Positions 2,619 through 63,394 of a stretch of DNA of 64,000 nt are shown in pieces (the stretch's first letter is position 1; each line of letters starts with the position of its first letter). Source of the DNA: a virus; IMG/VR virus record IMGVR_UViG_3300045988_181536, positions 96,001 through 160,000 of that record, one strand, 5' to 3'. The position numbers and the translations under genes were made by a program. Below the pieces are notes generated by a model. The model did no database searches, had not been told where the DNA came from, and saw only the letters and a program-made list of their open reading frames with translations.

Positions 2619-3125
2619 ATGACTAAAAAATTAAAATTGGCCTTTTGGCTAACAGATAAAACCCTAGCTATGAAAATAGAGGAACAAGCCGGTTTGCCCC
2701 ATTTTAAAGAAACAGGGTTTGTGAGAATTAAAAGTTCACCTTATCTTGAAGATTGGGGGATTTACCTAAGGGGCAATTACTGGGCTGCTGATAATCAAGT
2801 TGTATCAAAATGTTTTATCAGCAACGAAGAGCGCGACGCCTATTTGCATAAGGTTATTAATGCAATCACGGACGAGCTTTTCACGGGCGAAGGAGAATTG
2901 AAAGTTGGTGAGATGTGCGAGGTGAAAGATGGGGAAGTTGGCGATTGGGAAAAAAGGAAGCTCATAGCAGTTCTTCCAGCGCAATACAGAGAGCGATTCA
3001 TTGTTGAATGGGAGGATTGCCCTACTGAGCACGCTTCTTGGACTTACGCCCGCCCAATAGCTAAGCACACAGAACCCACCGTTGAGGAGTGCGGAAACGT
3101 AGTCACCTACATTTGGGAAAAATAA
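2619..3125 (+). CDS. hypothetical protein
   Basis: ORF, no recognisable motif. Confidence 0.3.
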   Translation: MTKKLKLAFWLTDKTLAMKIEEQAGLPHFKETGFVRIKSSPYLEDWGIYLRGNYWAADNQVVSKCFISNEERDAYLHKVINAITDELFTGEGELKVGEMCEVKDGEVGDWEKRKLIAVLPAQYRERFIVEWEDCPTEHASWTYARPIAKHTEPTVEECGNVVTYIWEK

Positions 3126-23217: not shown

Positions 23218-26200
23218 ATGGAAGAACAAGTAAAAACAAAAACCACGGATAATCCGGATCCGTTTACGAATGAGTTTTCCCGACAGATTTGGGAAGTAAC
23301 CTATAAAACGCAAAATGAAAAGAGTATTACAGATACGTGGAAACGTGTGGCAAATGCTGTAGCCAATGTAGAAAAGGATGAAGAATCCAAAAGATTTTAT
23401 GCTGAGGCTTTTTATGAGATTTTAAAAGATTTTAAGTTTATACCCGGAGGTCGTATATTGGCCAATGCAGGGGGTAGTTGTAAGAATGTCTCTCTCGTCA
23501 ACTGTTATCTCTCACCTGCTCCCAAATACGACATGGATTCCGTTGAAGGAATTATGGAGGTATTAAAGAACCAGGTTTTAACTTTAAAATCTGAAGGAGG
23601 CTGGGGTTTAAATTGTAGTTTTATTCGTCCCAGAGGTTCTTATATAGAAGGCATAGGTGCCAGAACCCCCGGTGCTGTAAAGTATTTGGAGCTGTTTGAT
23701 AAAAGTTCCGAAATTATTACGGAAGGTCCAGGAGAGTATTACATAGAGAATAAAGAAAAAACGCCTAAGAATGAAAAGAAGAAAATTCGCAAGGGTGCAA
23801 TGATGCTTTGTTTAAGCTGCTGGCATCCTGATATATACGAATTTATTACTGCCAAACAAAAGCCGTTTCATCTAACTAAAATGAATATGTCCGTAAATGT
23901 TACCAATGCTTTTATGGATATTTTAAATAGAGTTAACGAGCTTGTTAAAAACAATGCTTCGCAGGAAGAAATCGATGCTGTTGATTTTTGGCAATTGAGA
24001 TTTCCTGATACGGCTTTTGAAAAGTATAAATCCGAATGGGATGGAGACTTGGATAAATGGGAGAAAAAAGGTTATCCTGTAAAAGTTTATCGTACAGTAA
24101 GGGCTACTGATCTATGGGAAGCCTTAATGCAGTCTACCAGCAATCGTTCGGAGCCTGGAGTTTTATTTCTCGATAGGGCAAATGAGACACATTGCGCAAA
24201 TTATATCCCTGAGTTGCAATTAGTTGGGACAAATCCTTGTCTTACTGGAGATACCAAAGTTGCTGTTGCTGACGGGCGTACAAATGTGACTATTAAAGAG
24301 TTGGCCGAAGCTGGCAGAGATGTTCCGGTGTTAGCTTGTGATAATGCTGGCAATATTGTTACAAAGTTAATGCGTAATCCTCGTATTACAGGCTATAATA
24401 AAGATATTTATCGAGTGACTTTAGATGATGGTAATCATATTGATTGCACGTCTAATCATAAGTTTAGATTGTCTGATGGAACATATAAAGAGGTAAAAGA
24501 TTTATCAACAGGTGTAGCTTTGCACACAAATACGTTAAGTGTAGAAGAGTATAAACGTTATTTAGTGCAGGAAGTTTTAAATACGGAAATTACCCCTAAT
24601 CTTCAGCTTGATTCCGTACAACAACTGTGTGAAGAAGCAAAGTCTCAGGGTTATGAGGTAAAAATAGATAATAACATAGTTTTGGTTAAGAGGGTTTGTG
24701 AGGAATGTGGAAAAGAACATTTTGTTCCATTTACTCATCGCGAAATTGCGTTTTGTTCTCTGGAATGTTTAAATACCCATTTGAATAAAGAAAAAATCGC
24801 TGCCAAAACCACAAATACTGATTTAGATGTAATATCTGCTGAGGATTGGCCTGTAAGGTTTGTTTCGTCTATTGAATATATAGGCAAACAAGATGTCTAT
24901 ACCGGTACAGTTGATGATGTGCATAATTATTGCGTTGGGATGTTTGAAACTGTGAATGAACATGGACATCCAAAATTTTATATACTTAATAATCAGCAGT
25001 GCGGAGAGCAGGTTTTATACAGCGGAGGATGCTGCAACTTAGGATCCATCAATCTTACGGCATTTATAGAGTACGATGAAACTAAACATGCCGCCGTTTT
25101 TAACTTTCAGAAGTTCTCTGATATTGTTCCTTATTGCGTAAGATTCTTGGATAATGTCATAGACATTGCCAATCTGCCTTTGGAAGAATATAAATATATG
25201 GCTGAAAGTTATCGAAGAATCGGGCTTGGTATTACAGGCATAGGCTCTGCTTTAATGATGTTGGGTCTAAAATACGATTCTAAGGAAGCTAAAGACTTTT
25301 TAACTAAAGTTTTTGATGTTTATAATTTCTTAGGGATAAGGGCAAGTATCGCTTTAGCTAAATGTAAAGGTGCGTTTAAAGGATGCAATCCTGCAAAACA
25401 TGCTGATAATATAAAATATACGTTTAGACATTTACCGAAGTATATATTGGATGCTTTGCAAAAAGAATTGTTAGAAACTAACGGCATCCGCAATTCAGCC
25501 TTGTTCTCAGTCCAACCGACAGGCAATACAGGGTGTCTAGCCAATAATATTTCAGGCGGTGTGGAACCTGTGTTTCAGTTAGAATACTACAGAATTGTTG
25601 GAGTGCCGATTGTTCCTGAAAGCATAAAAGATAAATGTCCTAGGTTCTGGGAGGGGGATTTTACTCCGAACAATTATTTCAAAGAAGTTAAATACGCAGA
25701 TTTTACTTACTTGTCTTACGTAACTGAAGCTGGCCAAGAATATCAGATACATAAAGATAGAGGTCTGTGTGAAAAAGTAAAAATTCGAGATTATGCTTAC
25801 CAATGGATCTTGGATCATAATTTAGAATATCCACAGGAAGTTTTTACAACAGCTATGCAACTACCTGTTGAATCTCATTTGGAAATTCTGAAATTAGTAT
25901 CTGCACATTTGGATTCCGCTGTAAGTAAAACGATAAATGTTGGCAAGGATTACCCTTATGAACAGTTTAAGAATGTTTATTTAGATGCATATAATAGCGG
26001 AGTAATAAAAGGAGTTACGACTTATCGTGAGGGTTCTATGAGTGCAGTATTGCAAACTACGGATTCGAAAGATGACGTAAATCCTACATCTACATCGATT
26101 ATTCATCCTACTATTACTGCTGAGAAACGTCCTGATATATTGCCGTGTAGAGTATTTTTTAGAACGGTAAAAGGAATATCTTATTACTTTATTGTAAGTT

Positions 26201-26664
26201 TCTTGGAAAATAGTCCGTTTGAGATGTTTATTGACATAAATGAAGATAACATTTTTGACGAGGATGGAGAATGGGTTGAGCGCCGTCGCATTATACCCAA
26301 GACTGTAAAGGAAGGAACTTTAAAGAAGTTGGGTAAGGCTACGTTCGAGTTTGTATCTAAAGATGAGAAATTTATATTTAAAATTGTAAAAGCCAATGAG
26401 TCTTCAGATAAAGCCACATTAACAGCCCTTGCTCGTTTGGTGGCTTTGAATTTGCAGTCCGGTGTATCAGTGAAAGAGATAATACATCAGCTATCTAAAA
26501 CCGAAGGGGATTTTACTTCAATTGTGAAAGCAATTAACAAAGTATTGTCTCAGTGTGCTGGTAAAGTTGATCTTGGAGAAACATGCCCTGTTTGCGGAGG
26601 TAAAGTGTTACGTGAAGAGGGATGTAAAAAATGCTATGCATGTGGATGGTCTGCATGCGGCTAA
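23218..26664 (+). CDS. ribonucleotide reductase catalytic subunit, probably class II (NrdJ-like, monomeric) with a C-terminal zinc ribbon, interrupted by an intein at the NPC active-site motif
   Basis: 'SEGGWGLNCSFIRPRGSYIEG' loop. 'EPGVLFLDRAN...VGTNP|C' then an intein. The extein resumes 'CGEQVLYSGGCCNLGSINL'. C-terminal 'CPVCGG...CKKCYACGWSACG'. No NrdB is adjacent. Confidence 0.8.
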   Translation: MEEQVKTKTTDNPDPFTNEFSRQIWEVTYKTQNEKSITDTWKRVANAVANVEKDEESKRFYAEAFYEILKDFKFIPGGRILANAGGSCKNVSLVNCYLSPAPKYDMDSVEGIMEVLKNQVLTLKSEGGWGLNCSFIRPRGSYIEGIGARTPGAVKYLELFDKSSEIITEGPGEYYIENKEKTPKNEKKKIRKGAMMLCLSCWHPDIYEFITAKQKPFHLTKMNMSVNVTNAFMDILNRVNELVKNNASQEEIDAVDFWQLRFPDTAFEKYKSEWDGDLDKWEKKGYPVKVYRTVRATDLWEALMQSTSNRSEPGVLFLDRANETHCANYIPELQLVGTNPCLTGDTKVAVADGRTNVTIKELAEAGRDVPVLACDNAGNIVTKLMRNPRITGYNKDIYRVTLDDGNHIDCTSNHKFRLSDGTYKEVKDLSTGVALHTNTLSVEEYKRYLVQEVLNTEITPNLQLDSVQQLCEEAKSQGYEVKIDNNIVLVKRVCEECGKEHFVPFTHREIAFCSLECLNTHLNKEKIAAKTTNTDLDVISAEDWPVRFVSSIEYIGKQDVYTGTVDDVHNYCVGMFETVNEHGHPKFYILNNQQCGEQVLYSGGCCNLGSINLTAFIEYDETKHAAVFNFQKFSDIVPYCVRFLDNVIDIANLPLEEYKYMAESYRRIGLGITGIGSALMMLGLKYDSKEAKDFLTKVFDVYNFLGIRASIALAKCKGAFKGCNPAKHADNIKYTFRHLPKYILDALQKELLETNGIRNSALFSVQPTGNTGCLANNISGGVEPVFQLEYYRIVGVPIVPESIKDKCPRFWEGDFTPNNYFKEVKYADFTYLSYVTEAGQEYQIHKDRGLCEKVKIRDYAYQWILDHNLEYPQEVFTTAMQLPVESHLEILKLVSAHLDSAVSKTINVGKDYPYEQFKNVYLDAYNSGVIKGVTTYREGSMSAVLQTTDSKDDVNPTSTSIIHPTITAEKRPDILPCRVFFRTVKGISYYFIVSFLENSPFEMFIDINEDNIFDEDGEWVERRRIIPKTVKEGTLKKLGKATFEFVSKDEKFIFKIVKANESSDKATLTALARLVALNLQSGVSVKEIIHQLSKTEGDFTSIVKAINKVLSQCAGKVDLGETCPVCGGKVLREEGCKKCYACGWSACG
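24238..24999 (+). mobile_element. intein (~254 aa) inserted in the RNR NPC|GE motif; contains a Cys-rich insert, possibly a degenerate endonuclease
   Basis: N-terminal splice block A 'CLTGDTKVAV', block B 'TSNH', block F 'VYTGTVDDVHNY'. The apparent C-terminal junction is '...ILNNQQ|CGEQ', where the terminal Gln is unusual. The insert is 'VCEECGKEHFVPFTHREIAFCSLEC'. Confidence 0.65.
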
Positions 26665-26717: not shown

Positions 26718-29700
26718 ATGAGAGAAAGCGAAATTAATTTACCCCCCGTGAATATGGATTTGCCATGTCCTAAATTGGCAGATTTTTGCGGAGATTTATC
26801 GTATAAACGTTGTAAGGATGACTTAACTCCCGAAAACGATAATGTAGTATTTTTAAATGGTGTAGGCAGGTTAAATGCGGATATAATGTTTTTAACTGCG
26901 GCGCCATTAAAAGAGGATGTGGATGCGAGATATTCTACACCTATGCATTTAAAATCGGGTGCCGGTGAAATGTTTCGCGCAATATGTTTGCAAAATGGCA
27001 TTGATATTGATGACTGTTATTTTACGTCATTAATAAAGTACGGAATAAAACAAAAGAATTTAAAAGGTTGTAAAAAGGATATAGATTATTGTTTGCCTTT
27101 GCTTCTGGAAGAATTTCAGTATTGTCACCCAAAAATTATAGTTTGCGTCGGTACGGAAGCGTGTGACTTTATTTTAAATTATAAAATAAGCGTATCAAAA
27201 TTGGAAGAGGCGTGGTTTTTTAGTCAAGAACACAACGCTCATGTGTTTGTAATTAGCAGTATTTATAATGCCTATTATAAGCCTGAATTGTACGATAAAT
27301 TAGATAAAGAGATAGGCATGTTGGCTGACTTTTATGATCATTTTCTACAAGGCAAGCCAATCGAGCAGATAAAGTGTGACTATCAATGTATTTCAACTTA
27401 TTCACAGTTATCCAATTTGTTAAATCAGCTTAAGTCTGAAGGTTATAAATTATTTGGAGTTGACTGCGAGTGGGGTAAACAATGTTTTGTAGACGGATAT
27501 CTTAGATCAATACAATTTGCATGGGCTCCAGGCAAGGCAGCTTATATAAACTTTAATAATGAACAAGCCGAATGGGTCTTTGATGCATCAAAAGAATCGG
27601 TATGTAAATTATTGCAAGATTTTTTTAATGACCCTGAAGTGCATTTTGTAGGGCATAACGGAGCGGCTGATGCTCAATGGATGTCAACACATTTGGGACT
27701 AAATGTGTATGACGGCAAGTTTATTTTTGACACCATGTTTGGTATTCAGACAGCTGATGAATATGCTGATCAAAAGTTGGAAAAATTAGCTGCCAAATAC
27801 ACAGATAAAGGCAGATATGATATTGATCTGATCTTATGGAAGAAAAATAATAAAGGCGTATCCTTTGATGAAGATGAAGGATATGGACAAGTTCCTTTGG
27901 AAATTCTTTACCCATATGGTTGTTCGGATGCCGATGTAACTTTAAGATTGTATCCGATTATTAAAGACATGTTAATTAAAGACGGCACTTATGATTATTT
28001 CATGAATATTAAGTTGCCGTTTGTTATTGATGGATTTACCTCCATGTCTATTGCGGGTGTGCCTTTTTGCACTGAGGATGCCAATAAAGCGCGAATAGCT
28101 TATCTGGCCGCAGGCGTAGTCATGCAAAAGTTGTTTATGCAAATGCTTAAAAAAGAGGCATATGATTTGTTTTATACGGAAGTGTCAAAAATTCCGCAGG
28201 AAACGCCTGTAGCGAATATTGCAGAAATTCAAAAGTTTTTTGATGATGAAAGATCTTTTGAAGATATTTTTAATCTGTTAAAAAAACTTTATGGGCGCAA
28301 AGCATTGCCTTTATTGCCGTTTGCTGAACATTATTACTATGTGGATGCCTTTAATCCCAATTCTGCAGAGCATAAAAAGAAATGGTTGTTTGACGTAAAG
28401 AAATACACGCCTATTAAAACAACTAAGCCGGAAGAGGGTAATGCAATACCCTGGGAAAGAGTATTAAAAATGTCCCCCGCTAAGCAGAAAAATTATAAGC
28501 CTGCTGTGGATAAAGATACTCTTAAAATATTTGCGGATAAAGGAGATGATTTATGTCTGCATTTATTGCAAATGAATGCAATTAATCAGATAACCAAGAA
28601 TTTTCTAAAAGGTGAAGAAGGCGGGCTGCAAAAGTTTTTAACTTCAGATGGAAGGCTGCATTCCAACTTCGTTATGACCGAAAGCTCACGGCCACGATCG
28701 TTTAAGCCTAACATCTTAAACATACCAAGATATGTTACAGATTACATAGACAAGGGTTTCACGAAAGTATTAAAGTATTTTAATATTACAGATAAATCTG
28801 ATTTGTCGGAGTTTAATGAAGATAATTTTAATGAAATCGTAAATTCTTTACGTGAAACTTACGGCATTACCGAAAATATAACGATAAAAGATATGGTGCC
28901 TGCACCGTTGCGCTGGTGCTTTAAAGCGCCTGAAGGGTATTGTTTTGTCGATGCAGACTATGCCACAGCTGAAGTATGGTCGATTGCATATTTGGCAAAT
29001 GATAAAAAGTTAATTTCCACTTTGAATGATCCGGATCCGCAATTTGCATTTAAAAAGATGCCTGATGGTTCGGAAAAACAAGTGCGTATAGCATATTGTG
29101 ATGACATTGTTGAATTTACTGAAGATGCAAAAGATCCTGCACTACTTGTAGATCCTAATGATCCGGATTTGGTGAGAAATAATGACGGGTCTCTAAAGCA
29201 TCCGAAACAAGATGTTCACTGGGTTGCAGTGGAAAATAAATTTATGCTTAACACACCCCGAGAAAAGTTAAACAAGAAGAAGACGAGAGATGCTGCGGGA
29301 AAGGTAGCTAATTTTTGTTCTGGCAAAGAAAATTACGTTTATACTTTAGAGGGTTATAAAAAAGCAAAGTTAATAAAACAAGGAGATATTTTAAAATCAA
29401 TATCCGGTTTTACAAAAACTTTATCTGTTACTGCTTTAAATGAGAGAGACTGCATTAAGATCAGATTAAGTTCCGGATTAGTGGCTACTTATCATAAATA
29501 TCATAAGCTTAGATGCTTTAATGGTACGGAAATGGTCTGGGTAAGAGTTAAAGATATCGATCCAAAAAGGCATAAAGTAGTTACCTTCAATCCGAGTTTT
29601 ACTGAAGTTATAGGCACTTTTAATGTTCCAAAAGATTCTTATACGGATTTTTATACAGAATTGAAATGTCGTGAAGGTGATAATACCTATCGCTTGCCTG

Positions 29701-30677
29701 AGTGGATATTCTCTTTAAGTCGTGCTGAGATTTGGAGTATATTGCAACGCTTTTTAGAATTAAACCCCCGAGTCACCGATGCGGTGTGTTATCATTTTCC
29801 GTTAAAATTTTGGAAAAATAATTTAGAATTTATTTCCGATATTGCTTTATTGTTGAATTTTATAGGTTTTCAAACCAAGCTTTCGTTGGAACAAGGCGAG
29901 GATGTTTTAGTGGCTTCGGCTGCTATCGAACCTAATGGGCCTTTGCAAAATATTTATTTTAGTGAAGTTGTTTCTTTGGAACATGTGAAAGAAGATATTG
30001 TGGCAATTGAATGTGAATCCCATGAATATATAGACACTTCAATGAATAGCCATAATTCGATTCCTTATGGTGCAAGTCCTTCTTTGCTGGAACGTAACAT
30101 TGAAATAGCTTCAGGTGAAAAACCTGAACCTGGTACGGGACAAAAACTTATTGACGCCTATATGAACACCAAACCGCAAGTTGCAGAATTTTTGGAATGG
30201 TGTAAGTCTCTGCCTGACGGACAAGGGTATTACCAATCGCCTTCGGGATTTAAAAGACATTTTAAAATACCGCCTTTGGATGCTCAAATGTCGGATGATC
30301 TTAGAGAAAGTATCATAAGTAAACTTCGTCGAGAAGCTTGCAATATAGGATTGCAATCTTTGGTTGCTGACTCTTTAGCAAGGGCCATACCTCCACTAAA
30401 TGCCAGTTTTAGAAAGATGAATATGAAGAGCAGAGTAGTAATTCCTTTGTATGACGCTATTTATATTTTATCTCCTTACAACGAAGTCGATTTGGCTGTA
30501 AGTATGTTGAAGTTTTTTATGTCTGAGAATAATTATTGGGACCTAAAAGGCGGTCGCTTGCGTTACAGTATTGATGTCGAAGTTACAAAACGGTGGGGTA
30601 CAGAACTTTCTGAAGAAGAACACAAAGAACTAACTGAAGGATTAAAAAACGCTTGCCAGACGTTCAAGCTTGCGTAG
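26718..30677 (+). CDS. family-A DNA polymerase with a 3'-5' exonuclease domain, interrupted by an intein in motif B
   Basis: Exo I 'VDCEW', Exo II 'VGHNGAADAQWM', Exo III 'YPYGCSDADV'. Pol motif A 'DADYATAEVWSIAY'. Motif B 'RDAAGKVANF|[intein]|SIPYGAS'. Motif C-like 'PLYDAIYIL'. The likely true start is ATG 26754 ('MDLPCPK'). Confidence 0.8.
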   Translation: MRESEINLPPVNMDLPCPKLADFCGDLSYKRCKDDLTPENDNVVFLNGVGRLNADIMFLTAAPLKEDVDARYSTPMHLKSGAGEMFRAICLQNGIDIDDCYFTSLIKYGIKQKNLKGCKKDIDYCLPLLLEEFQYCHPKIIVCVGTEACDFILNYKISVSKLEEAWFFSQEHNAHVFVISSIYNAYYKPELYDKLDKEIGMLADFYDHFLQGKPIEQIKCDYQCISTYSQLSNLLNQLKSEGYKLFGVDCEWGKQCFVDGYLRSIQFAWAPGKAAYINFNNEQAEWVFDASKESVCKLLQDFFNDPEVHFVGHNGAADAQWMSTHLGLNVYDGKFIFDTMFGIQTADEYADQKLEKLAAKYTDKGRYDIDLILWKKNNKGVSFDEDEGYGQVPLEILYPYGCSDADVTLRLYPIIKDMLIKDGTYDYFMNIKLPFVIDGFTSMSIAGVPFCTEDANKARIAYLAAGVVMQKLFMQMLKKEAYDLFYTEVSKIPQETPVANIAEIQKFFDDERSFEDIFNLLKKLYGRKALPLLPFAEHYYYVDAFNPNSAEHKKKWLFDVKKYTPIKTTKPEEGNAIPWERVLKMSPAKQKNYKPAVDKDTLKIFADKGDDLCLHLLQMNAINQITKNFLKGEEGGLQKFLTSDGRLHSNFVMTESSRPRSFKPNILNIPRYVTDYIDKGFTKVLKYFNITDKSDLSEFNEDNFNEIVNSLRETYGITENITIKDMVPAPLRWCFKAPEGYCFVDADYATAEVWSIAYLANDKKLISTLNDPDPQFAFKKMPDGSEKQVRIAYCDDIVEFTEDAKDPALLVDPNDPDLVRNNDGSLKHPKQDVHWVAVENKFMLNTPREKLNKKKTRDAAGKVANFCSGKENYVYTLEGYKKAKLIKQGDILKSISGFTKTLSVTALNERDCIKIRLSSGLVATYHKYHKLRCFNGTEMVWVRVKDIDPKRHKVVTFNPSFTEVIGTFNVPKDSYTDFYTELKCREGDNTYRLPEWIFSLSRAEIWSILQRFLELNPRVTDAVCYHFPLKFWKNNLEFISDIALLLNFIGFQTKLSLEQGEDVLVASAAIEPNGPLQNIYFSEVVSLEHVKEDIVAIECESHEYIDTSMNSHNSIPYGASPSLLERNIEIASGEKPEPGTGQKLIDAYMNTKPQVAEFLEWCKSLPDGQGYYQSPSGFKRHFKIPPLDAQMSDDLRESIISKLRREACNIGLQSLVADSLARAIPPLNASFRKMNMKSRVVIPLYDAIYILSPYNEVDLAVSMLKFFMSENNYWDLKGGRLRYSIDVEVTKRWGTELSEEEHKELTEGLKNACQTFKLA
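29316..30056 (+). mobile_element. intein (~247 aa) in DNA polymerase motif B
   Basis: Begins 'CSGKENYVY' directly after 'ANF'. Block B 'ATYH'. Ends '...ECESHEYIDTSMNSHN' followed by +1 Ser ('SIPYGAS'), which restores the motif-B consensus NF-xxPYG-xS. Confidence 0.7.
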
Positions 30678-38478: not shown

Positions 38479-38535
38479 AAGTTTAAAATGCTTTAGTTAA
38501 TAATTTAAGGGCGCCAATTAAGACGCCCTTAAATT

Positions 38536-38583
38536 ATGTTTGCATTTCAATAGAAAATTTGCCTTAATGTTTGCAGTTCAATA
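38536..38583 (+). promoter_or_regulatory. two 17-bp direct repeats 'atgtttgca(t/g)ttcaata' 31 bp apart, immediately upstream of the RNA polymerase beta fragment gene
   Basis: 38536-38552 and 38567-38583 differ at one base. A hairpin 'aagggcg...cgccctt' lies just upstream at ~38508-38530. Confidence 0.35.
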
Positions 38584-38589
38584 ATTATT

Positions 38590-39369
38590 ATGATTCCTGA
38601 TGAGGACAAATATACGTTAAATAAAGAGACATACGCTGTTGATGATAGTGATTATGTAAGATCATCTTTGGAAAATAAGGTTCAGGCTGCTTTAAAGGAA
38701 AGTTTTCCATTGGAATACGGTGGTGTACGTTTAGAAGTAAAGAATATAAATATTCCAAAGCTTAAGAGATACACCTTAGGCGAACAGAAAAAGGCTTTAC
38801 TGCAAAATAAATATTTAGCCAATAGTGTTAGAGGAGATTTGTATCTTTATGATGCAAAAACTGGTGAACTCTTAGATGTAGCTCCAGAAAGAACTTTAAT
38901 GAGAGTTCCGTATTATACTGAACGTGGCACATTTATTCATAATGGTAACGAGTACAACACTTTAAGACAAATGAGGCTGCGTCCTGGAGTGTATTCTCGG
39001 AGAAAATCAAATGGCGAATTAGAATCACAGTTTAATGTGGAGAGAGGTACAGGCAACGGATTCAGGGTATCTTTAGACCCGTCATCTGGTATTTATAAAT
39101 TAAATGTAGGGCAATCTAGCTCAAATCTTTACTCAATACTACATGACCTTGGTATACCTGATGAAGAACTAGAATCAGCCTGGGGGCCGGATATTTTAGC
39201 ACGTAATAAACGTAGATATGACCCAAGAGCTTTATCCAAAGTTCACAGTAAATTGGTACCGAAGCGCATTTCAAAAGCGACAAACAGGGATGAAATGATT
39301 GCTGAATTAAAAGAGGCATTTGATAATCAGCAAATTGATGAAGAAATTAAATTAAGAAATTTAGGATAA
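38590..39369 (+). CDS. rpoB: multisubunit RNA polymerase beta subunit, N-terminal fragment
   Basis: 'RVPYYTERGTFIHNGNEYNTLRQMRLRPGVYS' matches bacterial RpoB '[33 protein letters not shown]'. 'RVSLDPSSGIYKLNVGQ...LYSILHDLGIPDEEL' matches 'LDFEFDPKDNLFVRIDRR...IILRALNYTTEQIL'. Confidence 0.7.
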   Translation: MIPDEDKYTLNKETYAVDDSDYVRSSLENKVQAALKESFPLEYGGVRLEVKNINIPKLKRYTLGEQKKALLQNKYLANSVRGDLYLYDAKTGELLDVAPERTLMRVPYYTERGTFIHNGNEYNTLRQMRLRPGVYSRRKSNGELESQFNVERGTGNGFRVSLDPSSGIYKLNVGQSSSNLYSILHDLGIPDEELESAWGPDILARNKRRYDPRALSKVHSKLVPKRISKATNRDEMIAELKEAFDNQQIDEEIKLRNLG

Positions 39370-39376
39370 TTTATAC

Positions 39377-40519
39377 ATGTCGTTTAACATTAGTAATTTT
39401 AAAAAATTTGCGGATTACGCTCCAATCTACATTCCAAAGAACACCGTCACCAAAGATGAAGCAAATGTTTGGGCTCAAGATCCAAATAATGCTAAAATTG
39501 TACGAGAATTTCAGCAAAACGTAGATAATTTGGCAAAAGAAAATTACCTTTCAAATGCTGTCAAAGATAATGAGCTTTTAAAAGTTAATAAAAAGGATAA
39601 TGGCCTGGTGCGAATGGGGAAAAATGTTATTAATTCCTCTGCAAATTTTGCTACAGACTTGTATTATAATGCTCCTAAAGCTTTGAAATATGTGTCTCCA
39701 ATTGGCGCTATTACCTCTAAAGTTATGCAATGGAATAAACCTGATTCGCATGCAAAAGTGCAGCAAATGATGAAGGAACATCCGGAGTTGCGTTATTTTT
39801 CATCAGGTCTTAATGCCTATAAAGGTTATTACGATCCCAATACTATGGCTCGCAATGCAGCGCAAGATGCAAATAACCTTAAAAATGAAATTGATAACAA
39901 CGCTCTTAGCGCAGGACTTACTGCTGCAGCAACTGCAGCTACCTTACCTGTAGGTGGCGCGGGCGGTTTAGTTGCACGAGGTGGTAGTTTAGCCGCTTCC
40001 AGAATTGCCGCTCGAACAGGAAGTAAGGGCTTAGGGAAAACTGTAGATTGGGTTTCTAGAAATCTTTTAGAACCTGGCATTCAATATTCAGTTAACCCTA
40101 TGGCGGCTGTGGGAGGTGTGGCTAAATCATTAGTCCCAGGAGGCGCACGTTCTTTATCAAGTCGAGCAGTAGAGGGTGCTTTAGGGGCTTCCATATTGCC
40201 ATGGGGAAATAATTCTGTAGATAATGCGTATAAGACGGATTTTAATTTTAAAACTTTCTTAAAAAATAATCCTGAATTTGCGAATTTATCTGATGATGAT
40301 CAGGGGCGATTATATCAATATTTGCAAGACTTTGGATTTGAAAACTATATACGCAATAATCCAGAATTGTTAAAACGTATTGAAAATACTCCTGAACAGG
40401 ATCGAGCGAAGCTACTTAACGAGTTACGTGCAAATTATAAAGGAGGGATTCCAAATATAAAGGAGCATGCTGCAGAATATAATGAGTTGCGTAATGCTCT
40501 TTTAAATGCCAATAGGTAG
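39377..40519 (+). CDS. hypothetical Gly/Ala-rich protein encoded between the two beta-subunit fragments
   Basis: 'AAATAATLPVGGAGGLVARGGSLAASRIAARTGSKGLGKTV'. No similarity to the beta lobe was recognised by eye. Confidence 0.35.
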   Translation: MSFNISNFKKFADYAPIYIPKNTVTKDEANVWAQDPNNAKIVREFQQNVDNLAKENYLSNAVKDNELLKVNKKDNGLVRMGKNVINSSANFATDLYYNAPKALKYVSPIGAITSKVMQWNKPDSHAKVQQMMKEHPELRYFSSGLNAYKGYYDPNTMARNAAQDANNLKNEIDNNALSAGLTAAATAATLPVGGAGGLVARGGSLAASRIAARTGSKGLGKTVDWVSRNLLEPGIQYSVNPMAAVGGVAKSLVPGGARSLSSRAVEGALGASILPWGNNSVDNAYKTDFNFKTFLKNNPEFANLSDDDQGRLYQYLQDFGFENYIRNNPELLKRIENTPEQDRAKLLNELRANYKGGIPNIKEHAAEYNELRNALLNANR

Positions 40520-40527
40520 TAAGCAGA

Positions 40528-41685
40528 TTGGTTAATATTATGTTTAAGTTTAACACCCATAAAAAAGCATCTACTTCACCATTTCCGAAAATTCAAGTGG
40601 CGGAAATGGACAAAAATACCCCAAGAGCTTCAGTAGGATTGGATTCGGTTATCAAAGCTACAAAAAAACTTTTAGCGATAAATCGCGGAGATACGGATTC
40701 TGACGAAAGAGATTCTTTAAGATTTAAAAAGATTTTAGGGCCTGATGATTTAATTGCTGAACGGGTCAGATTGGATGCTGGAAAATTGCGCAATGCTTTA
40801 ATGTTTAAGCTAAGCAAGAATCGCAGTTTAAAATTCTTCCCGTCCGGAGCTTTTGATTCTTATGCCACTGGACATATTATAGGTAATCCTTTGTCTTTGC
40901 CATCAGAAGAAATTAATCCGGTTTATAATCTTGATCAACAATCACGAGTGACGGTTTTTGGCCCCGGTGGAGTTTCATCAGCTGATTTAGTATCTGAAGA
41001 GGCGCAAAATGTGCACCCAAGTCAGTTTGGAGTGATTGATGCCGTGGTGGGCCCTGAATGTTTGGTGTTTAATCCGAGATATGAGATTTTAACTGAGACT
41101 GGATTTAAATCTATAAAGGATATAACTTTAAAAGATAAAATTGGTTATTGGAAGCGTGACGATAGAATCATAGGTTTTACAGAACCGGATAAGATCATAT
41201 TGCAAGAATACGAAGGGAATATTGTTGGCATTGACAATGGAGTAATTTTTCAGGAAACAACACCTGATCACCGTGTTTTAATAACGAATCCGGATTTGGC
41301 AAAGGATTTGCAATATGAGATTGTTGAAGCAAAAGATCTCATAGAAAATCCTTTAAAAGATATTTATTTATTTTCTGTACAGCAGGATTTATGTAAACAA
41401 TCTTTAAAAATTGTGCCTGACAATTGTTATGTAAAACATTTTCATGGTCAAATTTGGTGCTTGAAAATTTCCGGTGGTATGTTTGTTATACGTTATGGTT
41501 CAGAAGGAATACCTTATTGGACTGGTAACTCAGAGAAAATAGGAGTTGACGTTAGGCTAGCTTCTATGACAAGAATTGGTAAAAACGGAAAATTATATAC
41601 TTTATTAAGGGATCGAAAAACCGGTAAAAAGGTTTGGATGACACCTGATGAAATAGAGGACAACATTGTAAGTTTTCCGGTTTAA
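40528..41685 (+). CDS. rpoB: multisubunit RNA polymerase beta subunit, middle fragment, with a mini-intein; the ORF ends where bacterial beta continues
   Basis: 'RGDTDSDERDSLRFKKIL' matches RpoB 'NGKGEVDDIDHLGNRRIR'. 'SRVTVFGPGGVS...QNVHPSQFGVIDAVVGPE|C' matches '[37 protein letters not shown]|PN'. After the intein, 'SEKIGVDVRLAS...GKLYTLLRDRK' matches 'NIGLINSLS...GFLETPYRK'. The likely start is ATG 40540. Confidence 0.7.
   Translation: MVNIMFKFNTHKKASTSPFPKIQVAEMDKNTPRASVGLDSVIKATKKLLAINRGDTDSDERDSLRFKKILGPDDLIAERVRLDAGKLRNALMFKLSKNRSLKFFPSGAFDSYATGHIIGNPLSLPSEEINPVYNLDQQSRVTVFGPGGVSSADLVSEEAQNVHPSQFGVIDAVVGPECLVFNPRYEILTETGFKSIKDITLKDKIGYWKRDDRIIGFTEPDKIILQEYEGNIVGIDNGVIFQETTPDHRVLITNPDLAKDLQYEIVEAKDLIENPLKDIYLFSVQQDLCKQSLKIVPDNCYVKHFHGQIWCLKISGGMFVIRYGSEGIPYWTGNSEKIGVDVRLASMTRIGKNGKLYTLLRDRKTGKKVWMTPDEIEDNIVSFPV
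41059..41529 (+). mobile_element. mini-intein (~157 aa, no endonuclease domain) in the beta subunit between GPE and IG(L/V)
   Basis: Block A 'CLVFNPRYEILTETGFKSIKDI', block B 'TPDH'. Ends '...IPYWTGN' followed by +1 Ser. The penultimate residue is Gly, not His. Confidence 0.55.
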
Positions 41686-41710
41686 TTAAAGAATAATATT
41701 AAAATAAAAA

Positions 41711-43321
41711 ATGACACAAAAAGAAATTATAGAAAAGGTTATAGACTCTTTAAGAAATGTTTTAAATTCGGAAGAGGAGGTTATTGAGGTTGCAAAAGTT
41801 TTCACAAGGGATGGTTATAGGGAAGCCAGAAAGGCTGATTCTTCGTCATTTCCTTCTGATAAAATCATAGCAAAAGTCTTTGGCAGCTTTAAAGAATTTA
41901 AATTCCAACTTTTAGCTACATTGCAAGGGAGACGTACAGCGGATACTTCCGATTCTGATACCAAACATAGCACAGGTAATTCGGAATACATAGTAGAAGC
42001 TGACGGGGTTTTATATAATCCAAATACTGAAGATTATGTATTTGATTTCACCAATGTTGCAAATATAGCTAATGTTATAACTATTAAGAAAACTCAACTT
42101 TTAGCGATTTTGCAGGATTATTCGAATTTTGATAATGATCCTCAAACGGTTTCGGCAATTGCTTTAAAACATAAGATTCCTACATTCATATTAGAGAAGA
42201 TTTTACACAAGCTCAGATTTAGGCATAATTCCTTGCCTGTTACATCGTCTTATCTGACTGAAGTAAATGATGATGAAAAGGTTGTTGAAGATTTGGCAGC
42301 AATTCGTAAATTTCGTGTAGCTGAAAAATACAATCACCTGCAGTGGAAAGAGATACAGCTAAATGCGAATAAGTGGATTCAGTTTGAGCAATGCATCTAT
42401 AATCCTATAAAGGATGTGCTTTCGACGTTTAAACTTCCCAGAGTTACTCAGGATTGTTTGCCTAAATCAATAAATATAGGGAAAAATTCTTGTAAATTTG
42501 CAAAGGATAAATCATTTGTTGTTACTTTATCTGATCTTCACTTTGGAGTTTTTACAGATAAAAATAATGTGTTTTATTCTGATAAGGATTGGACTATAGA
42601 AAGTACTAAACGTGCCGTTGATAATTATATTAAACAAATTGTCGATGAACTTTCAAATATGCGCGTTATACCGAAGGAATGTATTATTATTTCCCTTGGG
42701 GATATTTTACATTCAATTACAGGATTTACAGACAAAGGCACTCAATTAATTGTAAATCCTAGAGGTGTGACTCAATTTAAATATGCCTTGGAATCAATTT
42801 CTTATTTCCTACAGCAACTTGCGGCAATTTGGAAGGGTATTTCACGGATAAAGGTTTTAGCTGTGAGTGGGAATCATGATTCATTTGGAGATTGGGTATT
42901 GTTTACTTGCCTTGAACAAATGTTTAAGGATGTTATGGATTTTGAAATCGGCTCATCTCGCTGGTTGATTTTCCAATATGGAGCGAATGCTTGTGTATTG
43001 GAACATGGTGCAGCTGCAAAATATCATAGTAAGGTGCCAAGTGATGATAAATCCAAAGAAAATTATGTGCAAAAATTACTCTTAGAAAAGATAGCCCAAT
43101 TTAAATCTCCAGTTTTAAATCGCTATTTCTTTATGGGAGACAGGCACCATTACAATCAAAAAGAGATGTCGTCTTTTGAATTTATTCAATTGCCTACTTT
43201 AGTGCCATCGGATGATTATGCGGATAACTTAAACTTAAGTAGCCGTGCTCGTCAGATTTGTTTTGTAATGGATGCGCAAAAAGGTATTATTAAAACAATA
43301 AACTTTTTTATTGACGTTTAA
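41711..43321 (+). CDS. calcineurin-like metallophosphoesterase with a ~250-aa N-terminal extra domain
   Basis: Motifs 'VVTLSDLHFG', 'ISLGDILH', 'AVSGNHDSF', 'VLEHGAAAKYH', 'MGDRHHY'. Confidence 0.7.
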   Translation: MTQKEIIEKVIDSLRNVLNSEEEVIEVAKVFTRDGYREARKADSSSFPSDKIIAKVFGSFKEFKFQLLATLQGRRTADTSDSDTKHSTGNSEYIVEADGVLYNPNTEDYVFDFTNVANIANVITIKKTQLLAILQDYSNFDNDPQTVSAIALKHKIPTFILEKILHKLRFRHNSLPVTSSYLTEVNDDEKVVEDLAAIRKFRVAEKYNHLQWKEIQLNANKWIQFEQCIYNPIKDVLSTFKLPRVTQDCLPKSINIGKNSCKFAKDKSFVVTLSDLHFGVFTDKNNVFYSDKDWTIESTKRAVDNYIKQIVDELSNMRVIPKECIIISLGDILHSITGFTDKGTQLIVNPRGVTQFKYALESISYFLQQLAAIWKGISRIKVLAVSGNHDSFGDWVLFTCLEQMFKDVMDFEIGSSRWLIFQYGANACVLEHGAAAKYHSKVPSDDKSKENYVQKLLLEKIAQFKSPVLNRYFFMGDRHHYNQKEMSSFEFIQLPTLVPSDDYADNLNLSSRARQICFVMDAQKGIIKTINFFIDV

Positions 43322-57099: not shown

Positions 57100-58380
57100 A
57101 GAAATTCATATTCTATTTAGTCAACTACTAATCATACAAGCTGATTAGCTTGTAACTAGGTATTACTACCCGCTACAATAGGCTTGTTGACGGAAGCCCG
57201 AAAGTTATTTGCTATATTGATAGCTGCATTTAAATCTGCATTGCATTCAAATCCACATTTCTTACACTTGAAATGGGATTGTGTAGTTCGATTGCCTTTA
57301 ACGGTATACCCACATCTACTGCATTTTTGCGATGTATAACGAGCATCAACGTGTTGAACACTACAGCCCTTAGCTAATGCTTTGTATGTTAGGAATTGCT
57401 CTAGCTGGAAGAAACTCCACGAATTTACTTTAGCCCTTTCGGACTTTCGCAATTTGCTACTACGATCTCTAATACCATCTAGTTTTTCAAGAACTATAGT
57501 AGTACCGGGAACGCACATAGAAACAATATTCTTACTAATACAATGATTCATATCCGTAACGAAACGGTTCTCCTTCATACTTAATGTACGGAGGTGTCTT
57601 TTAGCGGATTTAGAACCCTTGGATTGTAGTTTGGATCTTAAAATAGCATAGCGTTTCTTTACTTGTAGAACATGTTCTCCAGAGAAGATAGTACCATCAG
57701 ATAGTGTAGCTATATTGACTATGCCTCGATCTATACCGAGTACATTATCATTGGAACATTGCACATCCTCAACCTCCTTCTCAAATATGATGTGTAGGAA
57801 TAATTTGCCTTTCTTTAATGAGAGTGTAGCACCTTTCCTACGCCACGAGAAGTATTGTTTAAAGTGGTCTGTTAGATTTACTTTAAATCGTAATCTACCA
57901 TTCAATGTTAGGATAGAAACCTCGAAACGATCGAACCATATATTAAAGGAGTTCTTAGTTAATCTTAAAGCCATTTGTTTGGATTTAGGACATTTGAATT
58001 TCTTATGTTTCTTTCGTTCTAGTTTCGTAGTGGCTTTGATGGCTTCCGCTGCCTGATCCCGAACTTGTGTAGCGAGATCAGCTGGTAGTGAGAATTGTGT
58101 TCTACAATAATCATAGGTTTGATCGTGAAGCTTTCGTTTATCAAAATTACGATCCTTGAAACCTATTTCACAAATATAGTTATACGCCTCAGTATAGGCT
58201 CGAAATGTAGGAAGTAAATCGGTAGGATTTACGTTCTCTAGCTTAAGCTTTACTGTGCGGAGTAATTTCATTTAATAGTTAATATATTCATATATTAATA
58301 TAATAATGTCAACAACAAATACTTCAAAACACTAAACAATAGAAAGGAGACTTCCGAAATTCCTTGCAATAGACAATCTA
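57100..58380 (-). mobile_element. solo IS200/IS605-family (IS1341-like) element encoding TnpB only; boundaries approximate
   Basis: A minus-strand tnpB lies in an otherwise plus-strand region. A hairpin 'caagctgattagcttg' (57138-57153) sits directly 3' of the tnpB stop. Nested hairpins 'ccgaaattccttgcaatagacaatctattgcgtatcctttcgg' (~58345-58390) sit on the 5' side. No tnpA is present. Confidence 0.55.
57156..58271 (-). CDS. tnpB: TnpB (OrfB) RuvC-like RNA-guided endonuclease family protein
   Basis: RuvC-I 'GIDRGIVNIATL', RuvC-II 'IVLEKLDGI', zinc finger 'CSRCG...CKKCG', RuvC-III 'NADLNAAINIA'. Confidence 0.85.
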   Translation of the reverse strand: MKLLRTVKLKLENVNPTDLLPTFRAYTEAYNYICEIGFKDRNFDKRKLHDQTYDYCRTQFSLPADLATQVRDQAAEAIKATTKLERKKHKKFKCPKSKQMALRLTKNSFNIWFDRFEVSILTLNGRLRFKVNLTDHFKQYFSWRRKGATLSLKKGKLFLHIIFEKEVEDVQCSNDNVLGIDRGIVNIATLSDGTIFSGEHVLQVKKRYAILRSKLQSKGSKSAKRHLRTLSMKENRFVTDMNHCISKNIVSMCVPGTTIVLEKLDGIRDRSSKLRKSERAKVNSWSFFQLEQFLTYKALAKGCSVQHVDARYTSQKCSRCGYTVKGNRTTQSHFKCKKCGFECNADLNAAINIANNFRASVNKPIVAGSNT

Positions 58381-62260: not shown

Positions 62261-63394
62261 ATGGAACAAAAATACTATAAAATTTTAACTTCAAAAAATA
62301 CCTCGTTTGAAAGAGGGTTTGATTACACCCCCTATCTCCCAGAGAATGGAAAGCCAGGAAAGGAAACACCATTTATTATGAACCCGATTCCCTGTAGTAG
62401 AGGGTATCATGTTACGCCTAATTGGTTAAAGTATTCAAGAGTACGAGATCTAGATAATATAAAAATATATGAGGTTGAGACTATCGGCGAGTCATTTGAT
62501 TTGCCATTTAATTTTGGAAAAGAACCTGCTTTTATAATTTCATGTAGTTCAATTCGTTTTTTGAAAGATGTCACGTCTGAATGTAAAACCTTATTGAAAC
62601 AATTCAAGGAAAAGAACCAAGGTTCATTTAACCTAGGCGAGAATAACACAGGAGACGCAAACGAAGGAGATTATAATACAGGATCCGCAAATACGGGTAA
62701 CCATAACACTGGAAATTTTAACTCAGGTTCATACAATTCTGGGTGTCATAATACGGGAAATAATAATACGGGAACTGCAAATCTTGGGAATTACAATGCA
62801 GGCACTGGCAATATAGGTGATAAAAATTGCGGAAGTTTTAATGTTGGTTCTTTTAATGTTGGGGACTTTAATATAGGAAATCGTCATGTTGGATATTTTA
62901 ATATAGGTGTCTCTAATATTAAAATGTTTAATAAAGAAATAGATATTCTTCCAGAAGACATACAGTTTCCGCGTTGGATAACTGTAGATGATCCGTTTTC
63001 ATTTATGTTTAGTAAGAGGGAATTAAGATCGCGATTTGAAAACGCAGATAGTGACGACATCTACCGTACAATTAATCTTCCTAACTTTAACTACGCTATC
63101 TTTGAGAAAATAACTGGTATCTCAAAGGAAGATATTGATAAGAAATTAAGTTGGGTTACTCTTAAGGAAAGTGCATTAAGTGAACATAAAAAAATTAAGG
63201 TAAATCTTAATGAAGACTTTACAGAGCTAAAGCCTTGTCCATTTTGTGGTAGCAAGAATATAGAATTAAGTGCTGAAGAATATTATGATAAAGACGTATT
63301 TTACATTGTTTCTTGTAATAACTGTGGGGCTAAGATCGAAGGCTCCGGCAGAAATAAAGAAGCTGCAGAAGCTTGGAATACAAGGTGTGAATAA
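62261..63394 (+). CDS. fusion protein with ~19 consecutive 5-residue (pentapeptide-like, N-x-G period) repeats and a C-terminal Lar-like restriction-alleviation zinc ribbon
   Basis: 'ANEGD YNTGS ANTGN HNTGN FNSGS YNSGC HNTGN NNTGT ANLGN YNAGT GNIGD KNCGS FNVGS FNVGD FNIGN RHVGY FNIGV'. C-terminus 'KPCPFCGSKNIEL...YIVSCNNCGAKIEGSGRNKEAAEAWNTRCE' resembles the Lar family 'CPFCG...C..CGA....EEAI.AWNRR'. Confidence 0.55.
   Translation: MEQKYYKILTSKNTSFERGFDYTPYLPENGKPGKETPFIMNPIPCSRGYHVTPNWLKYSRVRDLDNIKIYEVETIGESFDLPFNFGKEPAFIISCSSIRFLKDVTSECKTLLKQFKEKNQGSFNLGENNTGDANEGDYNTGSANTGNHNTGNFNSGSYNSGCHNTGNNNTGTANLGNYNAGTGNIGDKNCGSFNVGSFNVGDFNIGNRHVGYFNIGVSNIKMFNKEIDILPEDIQFPRWITVDDPFSFMFSKRELRSRFENADSDDIYRTINLPNFNYAIFEKITGISKEDIDKKLSWVTLKESALSEHKKIKVNLNEDFTELKPCPFCGSKNIELSAEEYYDKDVFYIVSCNNCGAKIEGSGRNKEAAEAWNTRCE

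Follow-up and report, generated by a model that had tools for sequence, protein, structure and literature searches.

The 64,000-nucleotide stretch analysed here (hereafter the window) covers positions 96,001 to 160,000 of the IMG/VR virus record IMGVR_UViG_3300045988_181536 and contains three consecutive open reading frames (ORFs) that raise a question about phage transcription. ORF1 and ORF3 resemble neighbouring parts of the β subunit of multisubunit RNA polymerase (RNAP), the gene between them, ORF2, resembles no RNAP component, and ORF3 is interrupted by an intein-like insert. How can a polymerase gene broken up in this manner give an enzyme? A preliminary description of the locus had proposed a fragmented RNAP β gene with a mini-intein in its second fragment. 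The results presented below indicate that the window very probably carries the first two of five genes for the β-β′ core of an Arash/mReC-type RNAP belonging to a human-gut phage of about 170 kb.

ORF1 and ORF3 as fragments of the RNAP β subunit

The three ORFs are all located on the plus strand and follow one another, as had been read before. ORF1 (38590-39369, 259 aa, stop codon TAA) corresponds to the first β fragment, the N-terminal protrusion/lobe region, and ORF3 (40540-41685, 381 aa from an ATG, stop codon TAA) encodes the precursor of the second, composed of an N-extein, a mini-intein and a C-extein. An alternative start of ORF3, the TTG at 40528, would give a product of 385 aa. The ATG at 40540 is the likelier start, since public gene calls give the 381-aa product; the 385-aa version is not present in a collection of 15 billion proteins.

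In a tblastn search against 50,697 phage records, ORF1 and the N-terminal part of ORF3 matched adjacent positions of a single gene, gp206 of Salmonella phage Arash, a 1525-aa protein annotated as "RNAP subunit beta". The same adjacent placement was found in one gene of three Vibrio phages. The matched residues of Arash gp206 are 18-259 for ORF1, 241-419 for the part of ORF3 preceding the insert and 413-473 for the part following it, at an identity of about 30%. Arash gp206 contains, in this order, the β motifs GFNHEDG and HGNKG and the β′ N-terminal motifs NRAPTL and AADYDGD.

A hidden Markov model (HMM) of the family was built from 15 full-length relatives, and its positions are used below as coordinates of the polymerase. 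It recognised ORF1 at positions 16-254 (E=1e-60) and ORF3 at positions 259-403 and 399-451 (E=8e-34). The NCBIfam rpoB equivalog models, searched with each ORF alone, were matched at 36-233 by ORF1 (E=4e-7) and at 314-461 by ORF3 (E=4e-6), so that the phage family fits better than cellular RpoB, for which the bacterial models give about 1e-6. A PDB search with a profile of spliced ORF1+ORF3 and six relatives retrieved bacterial β at E=6e-37, the match spanning residues 29-444 of cyanobacterial β and its second half corresponding to residues 420-585 of E. coli β. The counterpart of ORF1 in bacterial β comprises residues ~29-270, and the two ORFs together are colinear with the N-terminal ~450-600 residues of bacterial RpoB. 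These matches bear out the earlier assignment of ORF1 to the N-terminal region of RpoB and of the second fragment to the fork-loop region. The proposed verification by profile searches succeeded in part: the family HMM, NCBIfam and the PDB profile agreed with the assignment, whereas Pfam gave no match for ORF1 and only a sub-threshold Rpb2_3 match for ORF3 (E=0.04). A PHROGs search with the raw ORF1 and ORF3 sequences yielded nothing beyond the latter.

According to the alignment, no β sequence is lost between the two pieces. ORF1 ends with the family-invariant 'TLG'. The N-extein of ORF3 (40540-41058) begins with a clade-specific extension of ~35 aa holding the conserved 'SPFPKI', after which the colinear β sequence resumes at HMM positions 259-403 (RDSLRFK ... 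FGPGGV ... NVHPSQFGVID..GPE). The C-extein (41530-41682, 51 aa, SEKIGVDVRLAS...VSFPV) covers HMM positions ~404-452, and relatives run on with 'FPDQYD...' where it stops. The nearest uninterrupted relatives of ORF1 show 41-43% identity. Public records label ORF1 "RNAP subunit beta" (e.g. DAF78896.1) and ORF3 "hypothetical". Judged from these alignments, ORF1 and ORF3 are consecutive β fragments of an Arash/mReC-type polymerase.

The mini-intein of ORF3

Direct translation of ORF3 reveals an insert of 157 codons (41059-41529, plus strand) between VVGPE and SEKIGVD, placed exactly between E and S of the conserved GPE/S motif (a slash marks a junction here and below). The Hint-type insert reported directly after GPE is thus found as described, with CLVFNP, TPDH and YWTGN/S all present; the motifs are Cys1, 'TTPDHR', 'GQIWCLKISGG' and 'WTGN'. 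With the insert taken out, the sequence reads GPE/SEKIGVDVRLA, the nearest uninterrupted relative reads GPESFGIGIDVRAA, and the family consensus is restored. Empty-site alleles, GPE/SEKIG, occur in three of the related loci (L138, L009 and L010; loci are designated by L numbers). In L138, whose ORF1 is 76% identical, the empty site reads ...VIDPITGPESEKIGVDVRLAS..., and L006 and L007, which are about as distant as L138, carry the insert.

The residues required for splicing were looked for and are in place: C1, T68-x-x-H71, N157 and, at position +1, the native extein Ser. Insertions relative to the family HMM were mined from related loci, and versions of 335-356 aa were found at the same site or within one residue of it in four lineages (L016, L077, L106/107 and L044). 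The inserts align as one family with block A "C...TEVLT..GWK", block B "VTPxHR", block F "G.VYCxTVP" and block G "SGN/S"; the T, H, G and N are invariant among 13 members. The long members contain a LAGLIDADG-type middle domain, and the 157-aa copy of the window, having no endonuclease domain, is a mini-intein by this comparison. Its boundaries can be regarded as fixed because of both the empty-site relatives and the longer versions at the same site. The insert of L044 (L044:3556-9006), one residue off the window site, ends with 'HWSGN/MNIGID', so its +1 residue is apparently Met and not Ser, Thr or Cys; the boundary may be misjudged, or this may be a non-splicing copy.

The profile of the splicing-domain family was compared with solved inteins, and the closest structure was the AceL NrdHF-1-1 mini-intein (6zgq, E=4.5e-7), matched over nearly the full length of the splicing domain. 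It was followed by the M. jannaschii KlbA intein (2jmz, E=2e-4) and RecA mini-inteins (E about 0.04); one further PDB match, to a bacterial intein-like domain, was weak (E=0.22). AceL NrdHF-1-1 differs from the window family in residing in a ribonucleotide reductase and in its low identity; the window family is marked by a terminal GN and a block-F Cys. In a word-indexed search of proteins, the insert found a single fragment. The ratio of nonsynonymous to synonymous substitution rates (dN/dS) of the intein, compared with locus L004, is 0.05. The empty-site alleles, the four blocks and the match to solved inteins support the proposal of a mini-intein made in the preliminary description, and the insert behaves as a class-1-type mini-intein whose splicing is predicted.

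The large subunit of ribonucleotide reductase encoded in the window (23218-26664, 1148 aa) also contains an intein, at residues 349-573 according to the Pfam model Intein_splicing, which belongs to a family different from that of the ORF3 intein.

The remaining RNAP genes

No further part of β or β′ was detected in the 64-kb window, even at E<=10 with filters off. ORF3 ends with ...VSFPV, and the remainder of the enzyme had been presumed to lie elsewhere; three further genes were indeed found in sister contigs, 95-100% identical, which were located through contigs exactly carrying the last gene of the window. A separate locus search with a β C-terminal alignment had more than 517 matches in the family, and the best 80 included none from the window clade; this says nothing about absence, because the search patterns misfit the variant motifs of the clade.

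The third fragment (L122:16259-19639 and L123:16471-19854, 1126-1127 aa, HMM positions 473-1400) comprises the C-part of β and the N-part of β′ and is located ~4.5 kb past the window end, or ~27 kb downstream of ORF3. The motifs of the β C-terminus and β′ expected from the earlier reading occur in it as the variants GWSMDDA, RSGNK and GADYDGD, and it matches Pfam Rpb2_6 and Rpb1_1/Rpb1_2. It holds a 161-aa mini-intein of the ORF3-intein family at GDKM/C...SGN/S, and its C-terminus reads GADYDGD/CQWGHVFLLTKS followed by a stop codon (L122:19600-19639). The fourth fragment (L130:10452-11429 and L139:6073-7050, also in L131, L134 and L136; ~323 aa, HMM positions 1398-1480) is a small β′ piece. 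It starts with ~239 residues ending in canonical intein blocks F/G, GYDLTVPGYETFINYSGVVLSN/TMNVHVP, before the β′ sequence. The two genes are 1-7 kb apart and are separated by variable genes, a LAGLIDADG ORF in L123 and a DUF7487/Mom ORF in L122. By sequence, the pair has the appearance of a natural split intein whose N-piece comprises 12 residues and whose site coincides exactly with the catalytic Asp triad. The fifth fragment (L139:16824-19112, also in L140-L143; ~760 aa, HMM positions 1489-1991) is the C-part of β′, lies ~10 kb past the fourth and contains a classical mini-intein, GGL/CLYYKTEV...TCNH...LISHN/S. By these assignments the whole β-β′ core is accounted for by five genes spread over ~51 kb.

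The inteins of these genes vary among close relatives. In genomes 95-99% identical to one another (L134-L136 compared with L130-L133), the intein at HMM position 787 has either 161 aa or 378 aa with an endonuclease domain, and L136 has an extra insert of ~407 aa at position 937. Such differences in intein size and number between near-identical genomes suggest recent gain, loss or size change. In the related loci L011-L121, intein-like inserts occupy at least 10 sites of β-β′ (HMM positions ~375, 403, 600, 787, 798, 828, 937, 1398, 1684 and 1827), and the β-β′ inserts fall into at least two intein families, with terminal GN and terminal HN.

Age and conservation of the split

Most of the ~120 related loci carry β-β′ as one ORF of 1500-2100 aa, for which reason the fused state is taken as ancestral and the fragmentation in the window clade is, on this distribution, derived from a fused ancestor. 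The clade consists of L003-L010 and L138, with ORF1 identities of 43-99%. All its members have ORF1, a middle ORF and ORF3, with breaks at HMM positions ~254-259 and ~452, and in every member except L010 an exonuclease gene follows ORF3. The split must be older than the intein, because it is shared by intein-less members and persists among relatives with as little as 43% identity.

Purifying selection acts on each of the pieces, with dN/dS values of 0-0.2. Compared with L004, dN/dS is 0.078 for ORF1, 0.007 for the N-extein of ORF3 (dS 0.39), 0 for its C-extein and 0.2 for ORF2, which is of the same allele type in both. Identical copies of the ORF1 and ORF3 proteins are found on 10-14 contigs that were assembled independently (ENA, Logan and JGI), and over 11.7 kb the window and L125, a contig from a human-gut metagenome, are 100% identical. 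The exact recurrence on independent contigs, together with purifying selection, excludes an assembly artefact or a pseudogene.

In other lineages, in-frame insertions of 156-431 aa that are not inteins occur at the same position of β (L065-L067, L071 and L084, HMM positions 254-256), and further in-frame insertions are located nearby (L048, L068 and L069, HMM positions ~222-241). The break site therefore appears to be structurally permissive, which offers a plausible explanation of why its fission was tolerated. Breaks have arisen elsewhere in the family, too. In L095 (2318-5818 and 5822-8875) and L079, one stop codon divides β into two adjacent ORFs precisely where inteins recur, at HMM positions 787-790. 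In Vibrio phage D181 (L002, OZ196140.1, 144071-149585) the homologous gene is in two pieces, of 514 aa and 1006 aa, which are separated by small ORFs and a gene annotated as a homing endonuclease; all the pieces are annotated as hypothetical.

ORF2 and its cassette

ORF2 (39377-40519, 380 aa, stop codon TAG followed by TAA) is a clade-restricted orphan read in a frame other than that of ORF1 and ORF3. Its description as a Gly/Ala-rich protein holds for the central third (residues 171-290; A 17%, G 15%) and not for the rest. No Pfam, PHROG or NCBIfam match and no profile relation to RNAP was found, in agreement with the earlier statement that it is unrelated to the polymerase. A PADLOC match to Cmr5 (E=0.0036, 16 bits) was judged spurious, and a transmembrane role is unsupported, the maximum Kyte-Doolittle value over a 19-residue window being 1.33. 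The AlphaFold2 (AF2) model of ORF2 has a predicted local distance difference test score (pLDDT) of 44; its ends are helical, and its Gly/Ala-rich centre is of low confidence.

Only six matches were obtained when 1.84 billion representative proteins were scanned with HMMER without filters; the most remote of them, P0024, again lies between ORF1 and ORF3 homologs. Word-indexed searches with the single sequence and with a three-allele alignment found only near-identical copies and one divergent allele. The ORF2 family is always located in the slot between the β pieces and comprises at least four allele types (window/L004, L006, L008 and L138) with 28-40% mutual protein identity, across which the N-terminal motifs FKKFA.Y and HPELRYFSSGL are kept. 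The DNA of L008 is ~97% identical to the window on both flanks and unalignable over 39547-40559, save for a 60-nt patch at 39763-39822. These near-identical flanks around an unalignable stretch identify ORF2 as a sharply bounded, recombinationally exchanged cassette; the hypervariable segment includes most of ORF2 and the first codons of ORF3. In L009 and L010 the slot contains sequence unrelated to ORF2, which in L010 is fused in frame to ORF1. When the ORFs of 138 loci were all compared with the ORF2 profile, neither the in-frame insertions mentioned above nor the middle pieces of L009 and L010 proved to be related to it. From its sequence, ORF2 is best read as a fast-evolving passenger or accessory gene.

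Probable transcription unit and neighbouring genes

A terminator-like hairpin is located between the upstream gene and ORF1 (38504-38533, plus strand; 10-bp stem TTTAAGGGCG/CGCCCTTAAA, 10-nt loop, T-rich tail). It was read from the sequence and was missed by the consensus terminator scan because its loop exceeds 8 nt; it probably marks the start of an ORF1-ORF2-ORF3 transcription unit. Within the three-ORF block the scan found no convincing terminator. The stop codon of ORF1 is separated by 7 nt from the ATG of ORF2, and ORF2 from ORF3 by 8 nt (TTG) or 20 nt (ATG). ORF1 and ORF3 share a reading frame, the gap of 1158 nt between them being a multiple of 3; for any two ORFs a shared frame is expected by chance in one case of three.

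No Shine-Dalgarno-like motif was found ahead of ORF2, ORF3 or the exonuclease gene (39360-39380, 40515-40545 and 41680-41715). The GC content is 35%. With these two features and the human-gut source, a host from the Bacteroidota would fit, although this is a guess. Directly after ORF3 lies a gene for an Mre11/SbcD-like exonuclease (41711-43321; phrog_284, weak Metallophos match), and an SbcC/Rad50-like ATPase is encoded at 3089-5722, 36 kb upstream of the exonuclease gene.

Alternative explanations

Several points weigh against the reading preferred here, namely that ORF1 and spliced ORF3 are the first two pieces of a working five-gene polymerase. Splicing and assembly are deduced from sequence, the last three fragments come from the 95-100%-identical sister contigs and not from the window, and the first two lie 27 kb from the rest, inside a block of replication genes. 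That distance, and the broken state of a gene that is intact in most relatives, would also suit ORF1 and ORF3 as non-functional relics of an RNAP gene destroyed by the insertion of ORF2 and unused by the phage. Such a history is hardly credible: the β pieces have dN/dS values of 0.007-0.08, the break points are identical down to 43% identity, the catalytic residues of the intein are intact, the same genomes contain the other β-β′ parts in intact form, and the sequences examined showed no second copy of the N-terminal region. It is very improbable, too, that ORF1 and ORF3 are rejoined through an intron containing ORF2, translational bypassing or trans-splicing of a split intein at the ORF1/ORF3 boundary. 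Their common frame would permit it, in-frame insertions occur at that position elsewhere, the middle piece of L010 is fused in frame to ORF1, and this phage and related ones of the gut abound in introns and inteins (PMC7886860). However, no Rfam intron or ribozyme match was obtained at E<=1, ORF2 is flanked by just 7 nt and 8-20 nt of non-coding sequence and is itself under purifying selection, and ORF3 possesses a start codon and a conserved N-terminal extension of its own. Neither the C-terminus of ORF1 nor the N-terminus of ORF3 shows intein blocks, the sole match of the window to the HMM of one intein family being the ORF3 insert, and the shared frame has the one-in-three chance already mentioned. 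A group I or group II intron holding ORF2 was rejected on the negative Rfam result and since no endonuclease, maturase or reverse transcriptase domain was found in ORF2. Fusion of the ORFs by stop-codon reassignment, which occurs in related gut phages, was likewise rejected: the stops are TAA, TAG with TAA, and TAA, the frame of ORF2 differs from that of the other two, and the window has no suppressor tRNA, its only tRNA being tRNA-Asn.

Other points against the preferred reading concern the intein. The penultimate His is replaced by Gly and the usual Asp of block F by Cys; the single-sequence Pfam match to Hint/intein models is below threshold, the single-sequence AF2 model of the insert has a pLDDT of 34, and hhalign of the intein profile with the ribonucleotide reductase intein of the window gave no significant match. 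The two residue changes, the sub-threshold Pfam result, the lack of an endonuclease domain and the weak PDB match to a bacterial intein-like domain would agree with a Hint-like domain that no longer splices and remains as a permanent insertion or a cleavage-only element resembling bacterial intein-like domains. Yet the same odd residues are found family-wide, including in the mobile, endonuclease-bearing members at five sites, and RPB2 inteins with 'TGN' termini have been reported (PMC1635734). None of Cys1, TxxH, the terminal Asn and the +1 Ser has been lost, the dN/dS is 0.05, and the insert occupies one of the best conserved β motifs, next to the cleft of the active site, a place that would hardly accommodate a domain of 157 aa, judging from structural knowledge and homologous RNAP sites (PMC1635734); loss of splicing is thus quite improbable. 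We regard it as unlikely, though less so, that ORF2 belongs to the polymerase itself, having started as a lineage-specific insertion domain or an accessory factor and later become an exchangeable subunit with its own gene. In all members of the clade it fills the slot between the β pieces; it is closely spaced with ORF1 and ORF3, with which it probably shares a transcript, and it keeps its motifs across alleles, and the same position of β has the 156-431-aa in-frame insertions elsewhere and the fused extension in L010. On the other side, it has no detectable similarity to those insertions, to the middle pieces of L009 and L010 or to any RNAP component, no family match and a low-confidence model, and its very fast evolution with whole-allele replacement is more typical of host-interaction or anti-defence genes.

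Proposed assembly of the polymerase

The preferred reading, the five-gene polymerase, can be set out as follows. An ancestral single β-β′ gene would have been broken at an insertion-tolerant surface site at HMM positions ~254-259, and the gap would now be filled by ORF2, a fast-evolving orphan swapped as a cassette. ORF1 would be translated into a free 259-aa N-terminal subunit of β. ORF3 would give a 381-aa precursor, from which the 157-aa mini-intein is predicted to excise itself by protein splicing, joining GPE to SEKIG. This would restore the TPE(G/S) motif by the Rif-pocket/fork region and leave a second β subunit of ~224 aa. The predicted sequence across the spliced junction is ...VIDAVVGPESEK, and the junction peptide would be ...FGVIDAVVGPESEK. 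Both products would then assemble non-covalently with those of the three genes 27-50 kb downstream. Splicing, non-covalent assembly and enzymatic function of the five-gene RNAP are what we infer from the conserved sequences.

A further-reaching version is possible, but we hold it tentatively and consider it rather doubtful. The core would be built after translation from five products, with three cis-spliced mini-inteins, at GPE/S in ORF3, GDKM/C...SGN/S in the third fragment and GGL/C...SHN/S in the fifth, and with the third and fourth fragments ligated by a split intein, the other junctions being non-covalent. The split intein, DYDGD/CQWGHVFLLTKS followed by the stop codon, would have an ultra-short 12-residue N-piece, and the ligated product of the two fragments would read ...GADYDGDTMNVHVPALPEAQAEIK. 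The active site would form only once the separately encoded third and fourth fragments meet. In this version, the same mechanism would underlie the RNAP fragmentation of the Zeta phages discussed below, and ORF2 would be an exchangeable module at a permissive loop of β.

Other features of the window

In the 1319-aa product of the gene at 26718-30677, an N-terminal uracil-DNA-glycosylase domain is joined to a 3′-5′ exonuclease and a DNA polymerase of family A; this last part is oversized, is matched in three stretches and may hold another insert. An IS605-type OrfB/TnpB gene (Cas12f-like) is located on the minus strand at 57156-58271; it is also present in L125 and L122, with an adjacent Y1 transposase. 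This TnpB is a polymorphic insertion, since L123 and L124 lack it there and have TnpB at other places. The gene at 62261-63394 codes for a pentapeptide-repeat protein that includes a Lar restriction-alleviation domain, and a Tad2-like (anti-Thoeris) gene was found downstream of the window (L122:14517-14846). The two genes together look like an anti-defence neighbourhood.

Comparison with known RNAPs and inteins

The closest sequence family is that of Arash gp206/gp216 and the mReC lineage, the multimeric-RNAP-encoding Caudovirales (PMC10585845, PMC7481178), with which the window polymerase shares the same bacterial-type β/β′ enzyme. These relatives are phages of 150-210 kb, similar in size to the window phage (~170 kb). 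The gene structure is different: Arash encodes β and the N-part of β′ together in a 1525-aa gene, and in many relatives β-β′ forms a single gene of ~2100 aa, whereas here there are five genes with inteins. Arash gp206 was the most abundant protein detected in virion preparations; the context of ORF1 and ORF3, by contrast, is one of replication genes and not of structural ones. Inteins and gene fission do not feature in the mReC paper.

Polymerases of the phiKZ/AR9 type (PMC7824862) are likewise composed of separate β and β′ polypeptides that assemble non-covalently, with β in two or three pieces including an N-terminal one. They represent another lineage with other split positions, and here the fragmentation is secondary to a fused ancestor and accompanied by inteins. 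The tblastn search of phage records gave no phiKZ-like match and recovered only Arash, the three Vibrio phages and bacterial rpoB. The sister contigs, of 164-176 kb, are below the 200 kb of phiKZ-type jumbo phages. The jumbo-phage context suggested in the preliminary description thus stands as far as the β/β′ split is concerned and fails for the lineage, which is Arash/mReC (~150-210 kb).

The RPB2/RPA2/RPC2 inteins of eukaryotes and giant viruses (PMC1635734) and the archaeal RpoA inteins also occupy conserved motifs lining the cleft, including the fork domain. Some inteins of the RPB2 type end with 'TGN', as the window intein does, but their hosts are eukaryotic, archaeal or nucleocytoplasmic large DNA viruses. 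No description of inteins in a phage RNAP of the β/β′ type was found in the literature searched.

The 'Zeta group' of crAss-like human-gut phages (Yutin et al. 2021, PMC7886860), with genomes of 145-192 kb, has a very high density of inteins. Its RNAP ORFs are 'drastically disrupted', even in DxDxD, with boundaries varying between close relatives, which was attributed to stop codons, frameshifts and 'yet unknown expression mechanisms' (PMC7886860). The Zeta group and the window phage agree closely, being alike in their gut origin, in genome size, in a rich set of genes for replication and nucleotide metabolism (ribonucleotide reductase, Thy1, dUTPase and uracil-DNA glycosylase), in their many inteins and in their disrupted RNAP; the five-gene architecture resolved here is absent from the description of the group (PMC7886860). 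The window lineage may belong to the Zeta crAss-like gut phages. No identifiers shared with the group were found in the supplementary tables, and the window primase has no crAss-like match among GenBank phages.

Implications for the polymerase family

Split phage RNAPs and inteins are each well known; here an ancestrally single polymerase gene is divided into five, invaded by inteins and kept under strong purifying selection in abundant phages of the human gut. The polymerase gene of the mReC lineage emerges as a major habitat of inteins, with at least 10 sites, which is absent from the original description, and the hypervariable ORF2 represents a recombination hotspot inside an essential operon. 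The natural mini-inteins, and possibly the ultra-short split intein, may be of use to protein engineering. The results are also relevant to annotation, ORF3 being 'hypothetical' in public records. For the biology of these phages, the five-gene reading provides a testable account of how shattered polymerase genes, such as those described in the intein-rich Zeta phages (PMC7886860), could still yield an enzyme.

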